A stretch of DNA of 64,000 nucleotides from Candidatus Woesearchaeota archaeon (GTDB lineage Archaea; Nanobdellota; Nanobdellia; SCGC-AAA011-G17; JACPIM01): contig CAZELK010000001.1 of assembly GCA_964513145.1 (NCBI GenBank), positions 32,001 through 96,000 of the forward strand. Direction: 5' to 3'. Under the pieces are notes generated by a model that worked only from the letters and a program-made list of their open reading frames with translations, had not been told where the DNA came from and searched no databases. Made by a program: the position numbers and the translations under genes. Shown piece by piece: positions 19,041 through 37,885 of this stretch (position 1 is its first letter; each line of letters begins with the position of its first letter).

Positions 19041-19919
19041 CTGGTCTTTTTTATTTAACTGGCTCTGATATATCAGGAAATCTTCTTTTGTTAACTTTGC
19101 CTTATTTTTTATTTTATCTTCAACTATTTTTGATTTTTCTTCTATGATTTTTTCTTCTTGTTTCTTCTTCATCTCTTTTCTTATCATCACTTCTGTTATT
19201 TTATTGTCTTTTATTTTCCCTATTTCGCCTAATTTAGAATTTAATTCCATATTTGACTTTTCTATTTCTGACTTAGTTTCTGATATCTCCTTTTGCTTAA
19301 GGTCTTCTTTTTCCCTTAATGCGTCAAGTTCTCTGAAAACTGTTTTAAATTCCTTATTTTTTTCTTTATTTGAGTCAAATAACCCTTTTATTTTATTATG
19401 TATCTTATCTGCTTCATTTCTTTCTTCTTTTATTTCTTTAGAAATCTTTTCTATTTTTTCTTTGTTGAAGAATAATTCACCACTGGTTTTAAATTCCATT
19501 TTAAGTTTTTTTAATTCTTCCATTAATTTTCTTTCCTTGTCAAATGATATTACTTCGGTTTGTATCTTTTCTTCCAAGAACTCTATTCTCTTTTTTATAT
19601 CAAGGGGATTTAATCTCTTATTTTTTGTTTTCTTTTCAAATTCTGAGTTTTTCTCCCTTAATTCTTTAACTGCAAAAATTAATTCCCTTACTTTTTTATT
19701 ATGAATGTCCCTTTCTTCCTTAAGTCTTGCCAGCTCTTCCTTTATATCAGGTCTTTTTTCTCTGGTTTCCTTAAGATTTGCCAAGAATTTTCTTATCTCT
19801 TTTTTTATATCAGTAATTTCTTTTATTTTTTGCTTTTTCTGAGAATTTAGATCACCTAATCTTCTGGTAAGTAAGTTAATCTCAGTTTTTAATTTATTTG
19901 AATCATTTTCTCTATCCAT
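19032..19919 (-). CDS. Archaeal coiled-coil protein (COG1340-like)
   Basis: Long K/E heptads, ERD..N.KV, IE.LE..IQTE.ISFDKE..LM. Lies downstream of rpl12. Confidence 0.75.
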   Translation of the reverse strand: MDRENDSNKLKTEINLLTRRLGDLNSQKKQKIKEITDIKKEIRKFLANLKETREKRPDIKEELARLKEERDIHNKKVRELIFAVKELREKNSEFEKKTKNKRLNPLDIKKRIEFLEEKIQTEVISFDKERKLMEELKKLKMEFKTSGELFFNKEKIEKISKEIKEERNEADKIHNKIKGLFDSNKEKNKEFKTVFRELDALREKEDLKQKEISETKSEIEKSNMELNSKLGEIGKIKDNKITEVMIRKEMKKKQEEKIIEEKSKIVEDKIKNKAKLTKEDFLIYQSQLNKKDQLS

Positions 19920-34007: not shown

Positions 34008-34385
34008 TTATTCACTCAAATTCCTTTCAAGTTCTTTAAACCCTTTTTCATATTTTATCATAACATAATCCTTTAATGCTTCGCCATATCCGCCCCTTAT
34101 TAAATTGAATCCAAATACATTTAACATTACTCCATAAACAACATCTTTCTGTACTTTTGCTCCAACTCCCATTATCAAACCAGCCTGGCTTATATTTTTT
34201 GTTTCTTTAACAATTTTAACTGCCCTGTCAATAAACATACCTAATTTGCTTAATTCAAATAAAAGGCTGTTGAAACTTTCATCCCCCATTATTTGAGGCA
34301 ACTGAGCAACATCTAAATTTCTCTCAGACAAGAAAGTTTCAAGATTTTTTCTTTCTTTATCATTAGGAATATGAGTTTTTACCAT
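34008..34385 (-). CDS. Hypothetical protein inserted between rpl14 and rpl24
   Basis: Likely start ATG 34385, one base after the rpl14 stop (MVKTHIPNDKERKN...). 125 aa; no recognised family. Confidence 0.7.
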   Translation of the reverse strand: MVKTHIPNDKERKNLETFLSERNLDVAQLPQIMGDESFNSLLFELSKLGMFIDRAVKIVKETKNISQAGLIMGVGAKVQKDVVYGVMLNVFGFNLIRGGYGEALKDYVMIKYEKGFKELERNLSE

Positions 34386-35366: not shown

Positions 35367-35675
35367 TTATCTTGTTTCTATTGAATCTGATGAAAAACCT
35401 AATTTTGTAAGTTCTTCCTTTGTTTTTTCTGCGTGCTCACCTTGGAGCTCTATTGTATCTCCCTTGACTGTTCCTCCACATGCGAATTTTGTTTTCAACT
35501 CTTTTGCGAGCTCTTTTAAATCAATCTCTTTTTTGTTTATTCCGTAAATGACTGTGATTAGTTTACCGAACTTTCTTTTTTCAATTTTGACTTTGATCCT
35601 TTGCCCTTCTTTAGCTATTGTCTGACAAACACAAAGGTCTCTAGGAAGACCGCATTTTGAGCAGATTTCATTCAT
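35367..35675 (-). CDS. sui1: Translation initiation factor SUI1 (aIF1)
   Basis: C..CGLP.DLC.C, R.FGK..T.I.G, LK.K.ACGGT.K...IELQG.H. Confidence 0.94.
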
Positions 35676-35895
35676 TCTTTTTCATACCTTTTCCTGAGTC
35701 TTTTGCTTGACTCTTTATTTTAGCTATTGTCAATATTCTTGCAATAGTTCTTCTTGTATTTTTTATTAGGGCTGGCTTTTCCAATGTGCTTCCCCTGGCT
35801 CTTTTTGCATTCAATATTATGAGTTCTTTTTTTAAATCTATTAACTTATTTTTCAAACTTTCCTCGCTTAGTTCTTTTATTTCACTTATTTTCAT
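35668..35895 (-). CDS. rpl29: 50S ribosomal protein L29
   Basis: [18 protein letters not shown]......RRTIARILT. Start ATG 35895; the track start TTG 35901 lies inside the IS left end. Confidence 0.92.
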
Positions 35896-36890
35896 TGGCA
35901 AGGATACCCCATCAGCTTGCTGTGGGGAGGAATTGCCCCTTTGTTAAGTTTATAAATATTTAAATCCTGATAATTAAGATGTTGATTAGGGCAACTGCAA
36001 AAATTAAGATTGAAACTAGACCTGAAATTATAGAAACTATTAGCCTCTATAGAAAAGGTCTGCAATTCTGTGTAAATTCTGCTTGGGAATTGAGGATTAA
36101 AAATAATATTAGATTGCATCCCTTTGTTTACAAAACTCTTAAAGAAAGTGGATTGCAAAGTCAACTGGCTATTGCATGTATTAAACAAGCCTGTGGGATT
36201 GTCAAAAAAGCCAAATCCAAACCGATTATTAATTTCTCTTTCATGGAATATGACTTCCCTAGGAGTGCTAGTTTCAAGAATAATATTTTGAGTCTTTCTA
36301 CAATAAAGGGCAGGATCAAGATTCCATTCCAAATCCCTGAATGCTATCAAATTTATTTTCAGGACTGGAGAGTTTGTGAAAGCATTTTGAACATTGACAA
36401 AAGGGGAAGATGTTTTTTTAATTTCAGTTTCTCCAAAGAGGTCAGCACAAAAGTCCCTAATCAACAATTCAGGGTTCTTGGTATTGATCTCGGAGTAAAT
36501 AATCTTGCTGTGACAAGTGACAACAAATTCTTCGGACAAAAGATTAAGCAACAAAGGATCAGGCATGATAAATTGATTAGTGAAATCCAAACTAAATGCA
36601 CAAAATCTGCTAAGAGAAAACTCAGAAAGATTTCTGGCAGATGGAGAAAGTTGATGGCTTGGACTAATCATAACATCAGTAAAAGTATTGTTGAACCATT
36701 GGATCAAGGAGATGTTATAGTAATGGAAGATTTGGTTAATATCAGAAAGACTGCTAAATACAATAAGTGGATTCATAAATGGGCTTTCTTCCAGTTGAGA
36801 AGCTTTATTGAATACAAAGCTTTCAGAAAAGGAATTAGGGTTGTCTATATTAATCCTGCTTATACTTCCAAAACTTGCAACAGATGTCAT
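35892..36890 (-). CDS. Antisense ORF across tnpB (332 aa), stop overlapping the rpl29 start; putative translation-relay ORF
   Basis: ATG start, same codon register as tnpB, ends CAA TGA with an ATGA overlap on rpl29. No recognisable protein motif. Confidence 0.4.
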   Translation of the reverse strand: MTSVASFGSISRINIDNPNSFSESFVFNKASQLEESPFMNPLIVFSSLSDINQIFHYYNISLIQWFNNTFTDVMISPSHQLSPSARNLSEFSLSRFCAFSLDFTNQFIMPDPLLLNLLSEEFVVTCHSKIIYSEINTKNPELLIRDFCADLFGETEIKKTSSPFVNVQNAFTNSPVLKINLIAFRDLEWNLDPALYCRKTQNIILETSTPREVIFHEREINNRFGFGFFDNPTGLFNTCNSQLTLQSTFFKSFVNKGMQSNIIFNPQFPSRIYTELQTFSIEANSFYNFRSSFNLNFCSCPNQHLNYQDLNIYKLNKGAIPPHSKLMGYPCQ

Positions 36891-37073
36891 AATTTAGATA
36901 CCTCTAGACACAATGGTTTTTTCAAGTGCAATACTTGTAATCATTCCTTGAATTCCGACATTAACGGAGCAAGGAACATAGCTCAACTCTACACGAGTAA
37001 AATGAGCTTGGCTTTTGTAAACAAGCCAACTATAACATGTGATGATGCCAAAGCATCTACAATTTCCGTATGA
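35979..37073 (+). CDS. tnpB: TnpB RNA-guided endonuclease
   Basis: RuvC I VLGIDLGVNN, RuvC II IVMEDL, Zn finger CNRC...CNTC, RuvC III NSDINGARNI; all three catalytic acidic residues intact. Confidence 0.95.
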   Translation: MLIRATAKIKIETRPEIIETISLYRKGLQFCVNSAWELRIKNNIRLHPFVYKTLKESGLQSQLAIACIKQACGIVKKAKSKPIINFSFMEYDFPRSASFKNNILSLSTIKGRIKIPFQIPECYQIYFQDWRVCESILNIDKRGRCFFNFSFSKEVSTKVPNQQFRVLGIDLGVNNLAVTSDNKFFGQKIKQQRIRHDKLISEIQTKCTKSAKRKLRKISGRWRKLMAWTNHNISKSIVEPLDQGDVIVMEDLVNIRKTAKYNKWIHKWAFFQLRSFIEYKAFRKGIRVVYINPAYTSKTCNRCHNLDTSRHNGFFKCNTCNHSLNSDINGARNIAQLYTSKMSLAFVNKPTITCDDAKASTISV

Positions 37074-37091
37074 TGAATTGAAGTTAAGCAT
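36894..37091 (-). CDS. Antisense ORF across the tnpB 3' end (65 aa); putative first leg of the translation relay
   Basis: ATG 2 nt after the rps3 stop; its stop lies 3 nt before the ATG of 35892..36890, in the same frame. Confidence 0.35.
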   Translation of the reverse strand: MLNFNSSYGNCRCFGIITCYSWLVYKSQAHFTRVELSYVPCSVNVGIQGMITSIALEKTIVSRGI

Positions 37092-37093
37092 AG

Positions 37094-37885
37094 TTATAAA
37101 TGCCCCGCATCTTGATGCGATTGGTGTGGTTTACTTTCTGGTTTTACTTCTTTTGTTTTTTTGGCACGAGTCTTTTTTGGCTTTTCTTCTTTTACCAATT
37201 CTTTAAGTTCTTCAACTGCCTTTGTATCCTCGATTTTTATTTCTTCTGCAGTTTTTTCAGATTCTTTTTTTAAAACAAGCTCTGCATTTTTATCTACTAT
37301 ATATACTCTATCAGGCAATGTTATATCTGGGGTCATTATACTAACTTTAATTCCGACAGTTCCGGATTTTAGGTTTGCTGTTGCTATCGCCCTTTTAATC
37401 TGATTAGCTGAAATATCCCCTGATTTTTTTAAATGGCCAGCTTTAAATCTCCAGCTTCTTGCCCTGGCACTAGGGACTTTTCCTGAAATTACTATTTCTG
37501 CTCCTGATGCGCCATGATCAAGAATGTCCTGCAATGTTTTGTATCCAATTGACTTGAATCTTTTAGAACCAAACTTTACCAATGTAGCTGATATTTTGTC
37601 AGCGACATAATAAGCGTCTAACATAGGGCTTTCTATTTCCCCAATTTCAATCTGGGGATTTTCCATTTTGAATCTTTTCTTCAATACATTTGTAAGTTTT
37701 TTTATGTTCTCTCCTTTTCTACCAACTACAAGACCAGGACGAGCTGTAAAAATTATTACTTTTTCTCCAAGGGGTGTTCTCTGTATTTCTATGTGGGAGA
37801 ATCCAGTTCCAACTAATTGAGATTTTATATGTTCTTGAACTTGAAATTCTTTTATTTTCTGGCTAACAAATTGTCTTTCTATCAT
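37094..37885 (-). CDS. rps3: 30S ribosomal protein S3 (last ~13 codons derived from the IS right end)
   Basis: MIERQFV, RTPLG..V.I.TARPG.VVGR.G, G.EI.ISGK, G..GIKV.I; the tail SKPHQSHQDAGHL is encoded by the IS hairpin. Confidence 0.96.
   Translation of the reverse strand: MIERQFVSQKIKEFQVQEHIKSQLVGTGFSHIEIQRTPLGEKVIIFTARPGLVVGRKGENIKKLTNVLKKRFKMENPQIEIGEIESPMLDAYYVADKISATLVKFGSKRFKSIGYKTLQDILDHGASGAEIVISGKVPSARARSWRFKAGHLKKSGDISANQIKRAIATANLKSGTVGIKVSIMTPDITLPDRVYIVDKNAELVLKKESEKTAEEIKIEDTKAVEELKELVKEEKPKKTRAKKTKEVKPESKPHQSHQDAGHL

Follow-up and report, generated by a model that had tools for sequence, protein, structure and literature searches.

A stop-free frame antisense to tnpB that ends on a host start codon: a probable translational bridge in an archaeal ribosomal-protein operon

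We analysed a 64,000-nt stretch of the genome of a Candidatus Woesearchaeota archaeon (assembly GCA_964513145.1, contig CAZELK010000001.1, positions 32,001 to 96,000; hereafter the window), in which a 1239-bp element carrying tnpB (35896-37134, tnpB on the plus strand) interrupts a ribosomal-protein operon between rps3 and rpl29. The element is of the tnpB-only IS200/IS605 type and its tnpB is antisense to the operon. Read in the direction of the operon, tnpB contains a reading frame in its own register that is almost free of stop codons, crosses the whole left end of the element and terminates on the start codon of rpl29. Comparison with relatives establishes, at the level of sequence, a stop-free frame that is maintained by selection, locked in register to the target TCAT and terminated on the host ATG, as well as the placement of these elements at genuine start codons, often former ATGA junctions, where the stop of the upstream gene is regenerated. 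We consider it probable that the open frame is a built-in translational bridge which re-couples the downstream host gene.

Stop avoidance antisense to tnpB

Read along the minus strand, the frame of rps3 runs to TAA 37096-37094, and 2 nt later ATG 37091-37089 begins an upstream open reading frame (ORF) of 65 codons (36894..37091) that ends in TAA 36896-36894. After a further 3 nt, ATG 36890 (with GAGGT 9 nt upstream of it) begins the main antisense ORF of 332 codons plus TGA (35892..36890), which crosses the tnpB start and the entire left end and finishes in CAA TGA, its TGA (35894-35892) overlapping the rpl29 ATG (35895-35893). Both ORFs lie in one frame, that of tnpB (35979..37073), and re-reading confirmed the coordinates and the shared register given in an earlier note on this DNA. 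Because of this register, antisense stops correspond to the tnpB codons TTA, CTA and TCA. The frame of the window copy is split once, at TAA 36894, which is the TTA of tnpB Leu306 and the sole stop-equivalent codon in that alignment column among 96 sequences.

The tnpB gene has 24 Leu codons (TTA 1, CTA 0, TTG 13) and 29 Ser codons (TCA 0), exactly as the earlier note had counted by hand; in the host (694 long ORFs), TTA and CTA make up 62% of the Leu codons and TCA 29% of the Ser codons. Host usage predicts 23 antisense stops in tnpB versus the 1 seen (exact P(≤1) = 2e-13), and none of 20,000 synonymous resamplings had fewer than 12 stops or an open run of more than 142 codons. With a null built from the A/G and four-fold third-base frequencies of tnpB itself, 17.6 stops are expected (P = 1e-10), so the proposed depletion is extreme by either standard. 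The avoidance is phase-specific, as TTA occurs 1, 19 and 3 times in the three phases of tnpB; the remaining two antisense frames carry 20 and 50 stops. Other A-ending codons are freely used (AAA 26/39, GAA 12/13, CAA 14/16, AGA 14/24), again in agreement with the earlier note. The same-register antisense run within tnpB (305 codons) ranks first among the 694 long ORFs, followed by one of 164 codons, and the density of stop-equivalent codons is the lowest of all (0.003 vs a median of 0.080). The longest other same-register antisense run in the window has 88 codons, which slightly exceeds the limit of 85 that had been given but leaves these runs far shorter than that of tnpB. The second-lowest density in the genome was found in a gene for an HK97-fold capsid/encapsulin-like protein (L155:1034-1840, equal to G000 C1:8433-9239, outside the window), which has 3 antisense-stop codons in 268 and is co-directional with its neighbours; its low density may result from expression-linked codon choice.

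A protein search returned >1,100 homologs, and DNA was retrieved for 104 loci (46-67% identity), 96 of which are non-identical; these relatives sit at differing insertion sites, many of them on short metagenomic contigs. Members of the clade were found in DPANN archaea (metagenome-assembled genomes, MAGs, of the Woesearchaeota/Nanoarchaeota type). The frame is kept open in nearly all relatives, which contain 0-3 stop-equivalent codons, have runs without a stop that typically span 320-380 codons, and have GC contents of 33-51%. When the rare antisense stops were mapped on the alignment, they clustered at codons 322-364, and codons 1-321 were nearly free of them. Of the TTR, CTN and TCN codons, those equivalent to stops amount to 23/3584 (0.6%) over codons 1-321 of the 96 relatives, which bears out the expectation of the earlier note that the frame stays open in homologs. 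The fraction is 19% (146/778) from codon 322 onwards in the same genes and 49% (477/974) in 20 TnpBs of the same order outside the clade, which have 13-40 stops each and longest runs mostly of 30-113 codons. Codons from 322 onwards act as an internal control that is independent of phylogeny and composition. Two copies present in one MAG (L001 and L002) both have the open frame. The genes of the clade are ambigrammatic, in that the reverse frame in the same register is held open over most of the gene through avoidance of TTA, CTA and TCA, and this is conserved.

Target site, register and start of the frame

In most relatives the antisense frame passes the tnpB start, a TATA-like box, a hairpin (GGCAAGGATACCC..GGGAGGAATTGCC) and the whole left end (LE), and in 64/96 loci it terminates at the TCA of a TCAT at the left boundary. 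The earlier note had reasoned that any insertion would end the frame on a host ATGA; in about one third of loci an in-register TCAT is missing or the frame stops in the LE hairpin loop. When the boundary TCAT was located by its position beside the hairpin foot, ignoring the frame, it shared the tnpB register in 49 loci and departed from it in 11. LE lengths are mostly multiples of 3 (84, 87, 90, 93, 96, 99, 108, 111, 114, 117, 126, 129 and 141 nt). In a region with no TnpB-coding role, insertions and deletions by multiples of 3 are a signature of reading-frame constraint. In 58 relatives the left boundary is marked by TCAT, which is preceded by T (position -1) in 41/58 (71%). Apart from this T, the loci have unrelated sequences 5' of TCAT, which can therefore be taken as the target and transposon-adjacent motif (TAM); for the clade the motif is probably TTCAT. 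The closest homolog, P0002 (74% identity), sits according to its gene calls between two opposite-strand genes, and the called start of the neighbour would put the TCA out of register. A sublineage of metagenome loci (L079-L090) has TTCAC (GTGAA backwards) instead of TCAT at the left boundary, and in the same sublineage the open antisense frame is partly or wholly lost (2-9 stops); a correlated loss is possible.

TCAT is ATGA in reverse complement, and host ORFs of 70 or more codons begin at the ATG of this ATGA in 30/50 loci with enough flank, compared to 21% for ATGA sites elsewhere in the same flanks (p = 2e-9). An enrichment of insertions at ATGA start codons had been suggested in the earlier note, together with a preference for essential operons; the former was found and the latter was not, as the affected host genes are diverse and not specifically parts of essential operons. 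Pfam domains that begin within ~25 residues or fewer of the ATGA start include a GT2 glycosyltransferase, an ABC-2 permease, an RmlD-like epimerase and PCC, and two intein-containing genes, for RtcB and for a DHHA1-domain protein, likewise start at the ATG of ATGA. Each of the latter two genes (RtcB ligase, L020:2-2863; DHHA1-domain protein, L023:515-2857) has an intein bearing a LAGLIDADG domain.

The other side of the elements was defined by a pattern search for the right end (RE), which gave 61 right ends, of which L003 was miscalled and dropped. Two forms of RE occur in the relatives: a short form, in which a hairpin with the tnpB stop in its loop is followed by GGGAWTATGTTAY, and a long form with ..CATAGTCAAAAGCC, a hairpin and then GGTAGTTTAC, to which the window copy belongs. 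Antisense-strand host ORFs of 50 or more codons run into RE in 28/51 loci. In 20 of these 28, the incoming frame is the one in which the RE terminus (R-TAA when read antisense) gives a stop at element positions 2-4. This frame is expected if the site was formerly an NNA TGA / ATGA overlap of two co-directional genes, in which case the length of the upstream gene is unchanged and its last codon differs in the third base at most. Host ORFs of at least 60 codons lie on both sides in 9/29 loci with both ends located and both flanks at least 210 nt long.

The antisense frame begins at different points in different relatives. Those with a long RE share a conserved ctATGct ~40 nt inside the end, with a stop 2 nt upstream of the ATG, and in some of them (e.g. 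L015) it opens a single ORF of ~385-400 codons. The earlier note had anticipated this form, and several homologs have one ORF of 384-401 codons from an ATG near the right end. ATG 37091 of the window is this conserved long-RE start; its context, ctATGcttaac, is conserved in the long-RE relatives, where it opens a single ORF of ~390 codons. Since the element reaches 37134, as judged from RE homology and the empty site, both the rps3 stop and ATG 37091 are element sequence. The earlier note had placed the right boundary 41 nt too far in. It had all incoming frames stopping within ~50 nt of the right end, two of them beside ATG 37091; measured from the corrected end, they stop after 4, 41 and 51 nt, with the latter two stops on either side of ATG 37091.

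The ORF of the largest subclade begins at an internal ATG that lies ~180 nt inside the right end and is complementary to a His codon, the one that occupies the variable position in the second CxxC of the zinc finger (the CxHC column). This His is encoded by CAT in 54/54 sequences, compared to 70% CAT among all His codons. Just beyond it, TTA is frequent at Leu codons (322, 324 and 328), and the boundary of stop avoidance is sharp. Ser323 is TCC (antisense GGA) in 32/54 sequences of this class, whereas TCC represents 22% of Ser codons overall, and an SD (Shine-Dalgarno)-like AGGA accompanies the conserved internal ATG in most relatives. SD-like 4-mers lie upstream of 48% of main ATGs, compared to 6.6% of other in-frame antisense ATGs. 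Because of the internal ATG, the sharp boundary and the SD-like signals, most members of the family look as if they load ribosomes on the frame themselves and do not receive them from the upstream gene. The relay of stops and restarts that the earlier note described thus applies to the chain of junctions at this locus, and most relatives are better described by a bridge with its own start. The stretch that would be left untranslated in these relatives coincides with the part of tnpB that presumably overlaps the guide-RNA scaffold. In L078, the zinc-finger region contains a seven-residue duplication, HCGCSFV (..CHCGCSFVCHCG..), at the site of the antisense start codon.

The proposed bridge and its rivals

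In the reading that we favour, host transcription would enter the element, and the antisense RNA strand would carry a stop-free frame from an element ATG. Ribosomes would cross ~1.1 kb of antisense ORF, through tnpB and LE, terminate at the TGA on the host start codon and reinitiate there at the -4 overlap. RE would supply stops to ribosomes arriving from the upstream host gene, and in the commonest case it would regenerate the stop of that gene in place. At the locus studied here, rps3 translation would stop on the element TAA and restart at ATG 37091 (2 nt on), stop again at TAA 36894, restart a second time at ATG 36890 (3 nt on) and finish on the rpl29 ATG. Moving ribosomes may in addition protect the RNA of the long insert against translation-dependent premature termination (polarity of the FttA type). 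As TCAT is ATGA backwards, insertions that survive in gene-dense genomes would lie directly 5' of a host start codon and antisense to it.

Termination-reinitiation at ATGA overlaps is known to function in archaea (PMC6728339, PMC10666635), and in a passage of PMC12548453 that cites Sanders 2020 the polarity of archaeal operons on untranslated RNA is attributed to FttA. Within the bridge reading, the delivery of ribosomes is better grounded than the part that concerns polarity. We infer from the comparisons that the antisense frame would be translated and that its translation would rescue downstream expression. We also incline to the broader view that a whole clade of DPANN TnpBs practises such 'translational stealth', combining a TAM that is a start codon backwards, an RE that regenerates the upstream stop, and a dual-coded nuclease gene and LE with their own ATG and SD-like signal.

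One alternative is that the element derives a functional protein from the antisense ORF (an overlapping gene for, e.g., a regulator or a transposition helper) and that the TGA of the target is incidental. A long conserved ORF, a conserved ATG and an SD-like motif would fit such a gene, and codons are shared at identical TnpB residues slightly more often than expected from codon usage (1.15-fold, compared to 1.08-fold in control TnpBs). This difference does not amount to added constraint, and the purifying selection on the antisense protein for which the earlier note proposed a check was not found. The antisense product matches no Pfam family. In an alignment of 48 antisense products the mean column identity was 36% and only six columns were invariant, and AlphaFold2, run on this 48-sequence alignment, returned a mean pLDDT of 36 and a pTM of 0.15 with essentially no secondary structure. 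The third positions of tnpB codons vary freely even at invariant residues (e.g. Cys, TGT 51 vs TGC 38), and the antisense residues therefore change freely. The start differs between subclades (codons ~304, 319 and 347-365), an internal stop and restart is tolerated, and a protein would not need to cross the LE hairpin or to keep register with the target TCAT. Selection thus appears to act on openness and register and not on the peptide sequence, and we regard the functional protein as unlikely. The same low standing is given to a role of antisense openness or translation in regulation of the element, e.g. through a stabilised read-through antisense RNA that damps tnpB or the guide RNA, with host rescue being incidental. 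Host read-through necessarily yields RNA antisense to tnpB, and the open frame ends short of the presumed guide-RNA scaffold overlap (codons from 322 onwards), both of which agree with self-regulation. It leaves unexplained, however, why the frame ends exactly on the host ATG in register (49 loci vs 11), why insertions lie at real start codons and why RE regenerates the upstream stop.

Two further explanations concern the origin of the pattern. The codon usage of tnpB is unlike that of the host (A3 27% vs 42%; TTC 68% vs 17%), as would be expected if the open frame were a by-product of donor codon bias or chance. This explanation, to which we give next to no weight, is refuted by the null based on the gene's own third bases, by the 19% of stop-equivalent codons in the 3' part of the same genes compared to codons 1-321, by the persistence of the pattern over the range of GC contents among the relatives and by the 49% in TnpBs of the same order outside the clade, in addition to the free use of other A-ending codons. 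Of the outcomes that the earlier note had named as refuting its proposal, neither frequent stops in homologs nor an explanation by donor bias was thus encountered. The frame could instead have been opened by local host-level selection after a single insertion in an essential operon, without being a property of the lineage. The copy does lie in a ribosomal-protein operon, where polarity would be costly, and it is probably fixed in place as the genome has no TnpA gene. The survey of homologs refutes this very improbable explanation, because ~90 relatives at unrelated sites beside unrelated host genes, including L001 and L002, share the open frame.

Several observations weigh against the bridge as we propose it. 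A few lineages within the clade have many antisense stops (L013, L080/L086/L089, L141 and L149), and ~1/3 of loci have no in-register TCAT or a frame that stops in the loop of the LE hairpin. The ORF of most relatives starts ~180 nt inside the right end, and the next ATG lies 40-190 nt beyond the commonest stop (RE positions 2-4), so the hand-over from the upstream host gene is not tight; coupling needs overlaps or very short gaps according to experiments cited in a passage of PMC10666635. The SD-like motif is rather far from the ATG (~11 nt), and the host rarely uses SD sequences (21% vs 11.5% background). Finally, the sequences are related to one another although their insertion sites are independent, and per-sequence P values and counts consequently overstate independence.

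We compared the element with known systems. Canonical tnpB-only (IS1341-type) elements of IS200/IS605 rely on homing by TnpB and a guide RNA, have subterminal hairpins and cause no target duplication; they insert 3' of a short target, which is at the same time the TAM, and their right end overlaps the 3' end of tnpB. The present element resembles them in its TnpB domains, its subterminal hairpins and its insertion 3' of a short target without duplication, but among the members described in the literature searched, none has a stop-free antisense frame that is conserved or a start codon as its target. Nor did the searches on TnpB and IS200/IS605 elements bring up any account of translational coupling. 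Where the antisense ORF meets the host gene, the two form a classic -4 overlap like those of archaeal and bacterial ATGA/TGATG coupling, and at the internal junctions of this locus 2 and 3 nt separate stop from start. Known cases of such coupling join two host genes, whereas here the upstream partner is a transposon frame without apparent protein function.

The nearest described idea is that of mycobacterial interspersed repetitive units (MIRUs), which insert at start codons and contain an internal ORF coupled to the host gene by a -4 overlap, an arrangement thought to minimise the effect on host-gene expression (PMC12548453). The element likewise inserts at host start codons and has an internal ORF that ends in a -4 overlap. 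MIRUs, however, are mycobacterial, gene-less and tens of bases long, while this is a 1239-bp tnpB element in DPANN archaea with a frame of 330-400 codons antisense over a nuclease gene and a transposon end, making it an analogue and not a member. Among TnpB systems the nearest precedent is the IStron, a TnpB-carrying group I intron transposon that lowers its cost to the host by self-splicing (PMC10690162). Both are TnpB-family transposons that restore expression of an interrupted transcript; IStrons do so at the RNA level and in sense orientation, whereas restoration by the present element is proposed to be at the level of translation and antisense, and the element has no Rfam intron match.

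If the bridge reading is true, it describes a new way for a transposon to cut its cost to the host, in which an interrupted operon is kept translatable and neither avoidance of genes nor self-splicing is needed. The bridge would do at the level of translation what splicing does for IStrons, would account for the persistence of a 1.2-kb element inside a ribosomal-protein operon of a 1-Mb genome, and would make this the first transposon with a protein gene shaped codon by codon for backward reading. The clade offers a clean natural case of selection in which only the absence of stop codons matters and the codons past 321 serve as a built-in control; theories of overlapping and ambigrammatic coding could draw on it. 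It also provides a natural construct for archaeal transcription-translation coupling, FttA-type polarity and termination-reinitiation, and for this compact clade of archaeal TnpBs the predicted TAM is TCAT/TTCAT.

Anatomy of the element and its surroundings

The host genome is ~0.98 Mb long with 29% GC and is 98.8% complete. The order of genes in the operon is rpl4-rpl23-rpl2-rps19-rpl22-rps3-[element]-rpl29-SUI1-RNase P p29-rps17-rpl14. On the minus strand, the host part of rps3 (37135..37885; Pfam KH_2 and Ribosomal_S3_C) is followed by an element-encoded tail of 13 codons plus TAA (37094..37134), and rpl29 (35668..35895; Pfam Ribosomal_L29) has its start codon at the insertion target. When the element is excised in silico, the minus strand reads ..AAA CCA GAA A/AT GAA AAT AAG TGA (slash at the junction), and the reconstructed rps3 ends in ..KPENENK*, overlapping the rpl29 ATG by 14 nt. 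Three genomes of the same genus have the uninterrupted rps3/rpl29 arrangement, with ends such as ..IENENK* and ..EENENQ* and with gaaaATGaaaataaaTGA. By this empty-site comparison the insertion is clean and without target-site duplication; it lies exactly 3' of TCAT on the tnpB strand and directly 5' of the rpl29 ATG. The last four residues of rps3 (the native NENK) were lost and replaced by 13 element-encoded residues and an element stop, which is a warning for annotation, as the C-terminus of rps3 is transposon-derived here.

The limits of the element (35896-37134) were set by right-end homology and the same-genus empty site. The target and putative TAM, TCAT, occupies 35892..35895 on the plus strand, and its reverse complement, ATGA, combines the rpl29 ATG with the TGA stop of the antisense ORF. 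RE is of the long type (37074..37134: ..AAGCATAGTTATAAATGCC, hairpin CGCAT-CTTG-ATGCG, terminus GGTTTAC at 37134) and was assigned by homology with the RE of L009, L015, L068 and L098 together with the empty-site reconstruction and the fold; the guide-RNA scaffold probably has its 3' part here. A right boundary at ~37093 was ruled out in favour of 37134 by RE homology and the same-genus empty site. A left boundary at an upstream TTCAC, which would make the first rpl29 codons element-derived, was also rejected, as ATGAAAATAA is common to the uninterrupted same-genus relatives. LE (83 nt, 35896..35978) was delimited by alignment of upstream regions; it contains a subterminal imperfect hairpin (GGCAAGG...CCCCA..TGGGG..TTGCC, 35897-35937, DNA fold -9.1 kcal/mol) and, recognised in the same alignment, the TATA-like box of the tnpB promoter (35949-35965), all on the plus strand. 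Subterminal hairpins are conserved at both LE and RE, and there are no terminal inverted repeats. By analogy with established IS200/IS605-TnpB biology, the flank at 37135..37154 (plus strand) is presumed to be matched by the guide RNA of the element, and together with TCAT it would form the empty site that TnpB would cut.

The tnpB gene (364 codons) is intact as judged by Pfam, invariant residues and codon counts. Its product has the domains OrfB_IS605 (PF01385, 6e-9) and Cas12f1-like TNB (PF07282, 1e-21), and both the RuvC triad (D170/E250/D327) and the zinc finger (C300, C303, C317 and C320, two CxxC pairs) are present and invariant in a 26-sequence alignment. The 98.8%-complete genome has no match to the Y1 transposase TnpA (PF01797), which is compatible with a non-autonomous, currently immobile copy. 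At 35892-35903 TCAT is directly followed by TGGCAAGG, and most relatives have ~9 nt (AWAA....) before the hairpin foot. Most relatives thus have an LE that is longer than that of the window copy by ~9 nt, a multiple of 3; the difference could reflect either natural variation or a deletion that kept the frame and immobilised the copy. Given the missing ~9-nt spacer and the lack of TnpA in the genome, the copy may be immobile.

A scan of the element on both strands against Rfam (E ≤ 1) matched no family and no group I intron. The same genome has no second copy of the element that could be used to define its ends, only distant tnpB paralogs. Three of these are full-length (G000 C7:14019-14906, C7:~19242-19436 and C12:5723-6247) and have ordinary antisense stop densities (17-36 stops). 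Further along the operon, an ORF of ~125 codons with no Pfam match (34011-34385, minus strand) lies between rpl14 and rpl24, two genes that normally abut in archaeal ribosomal operons.

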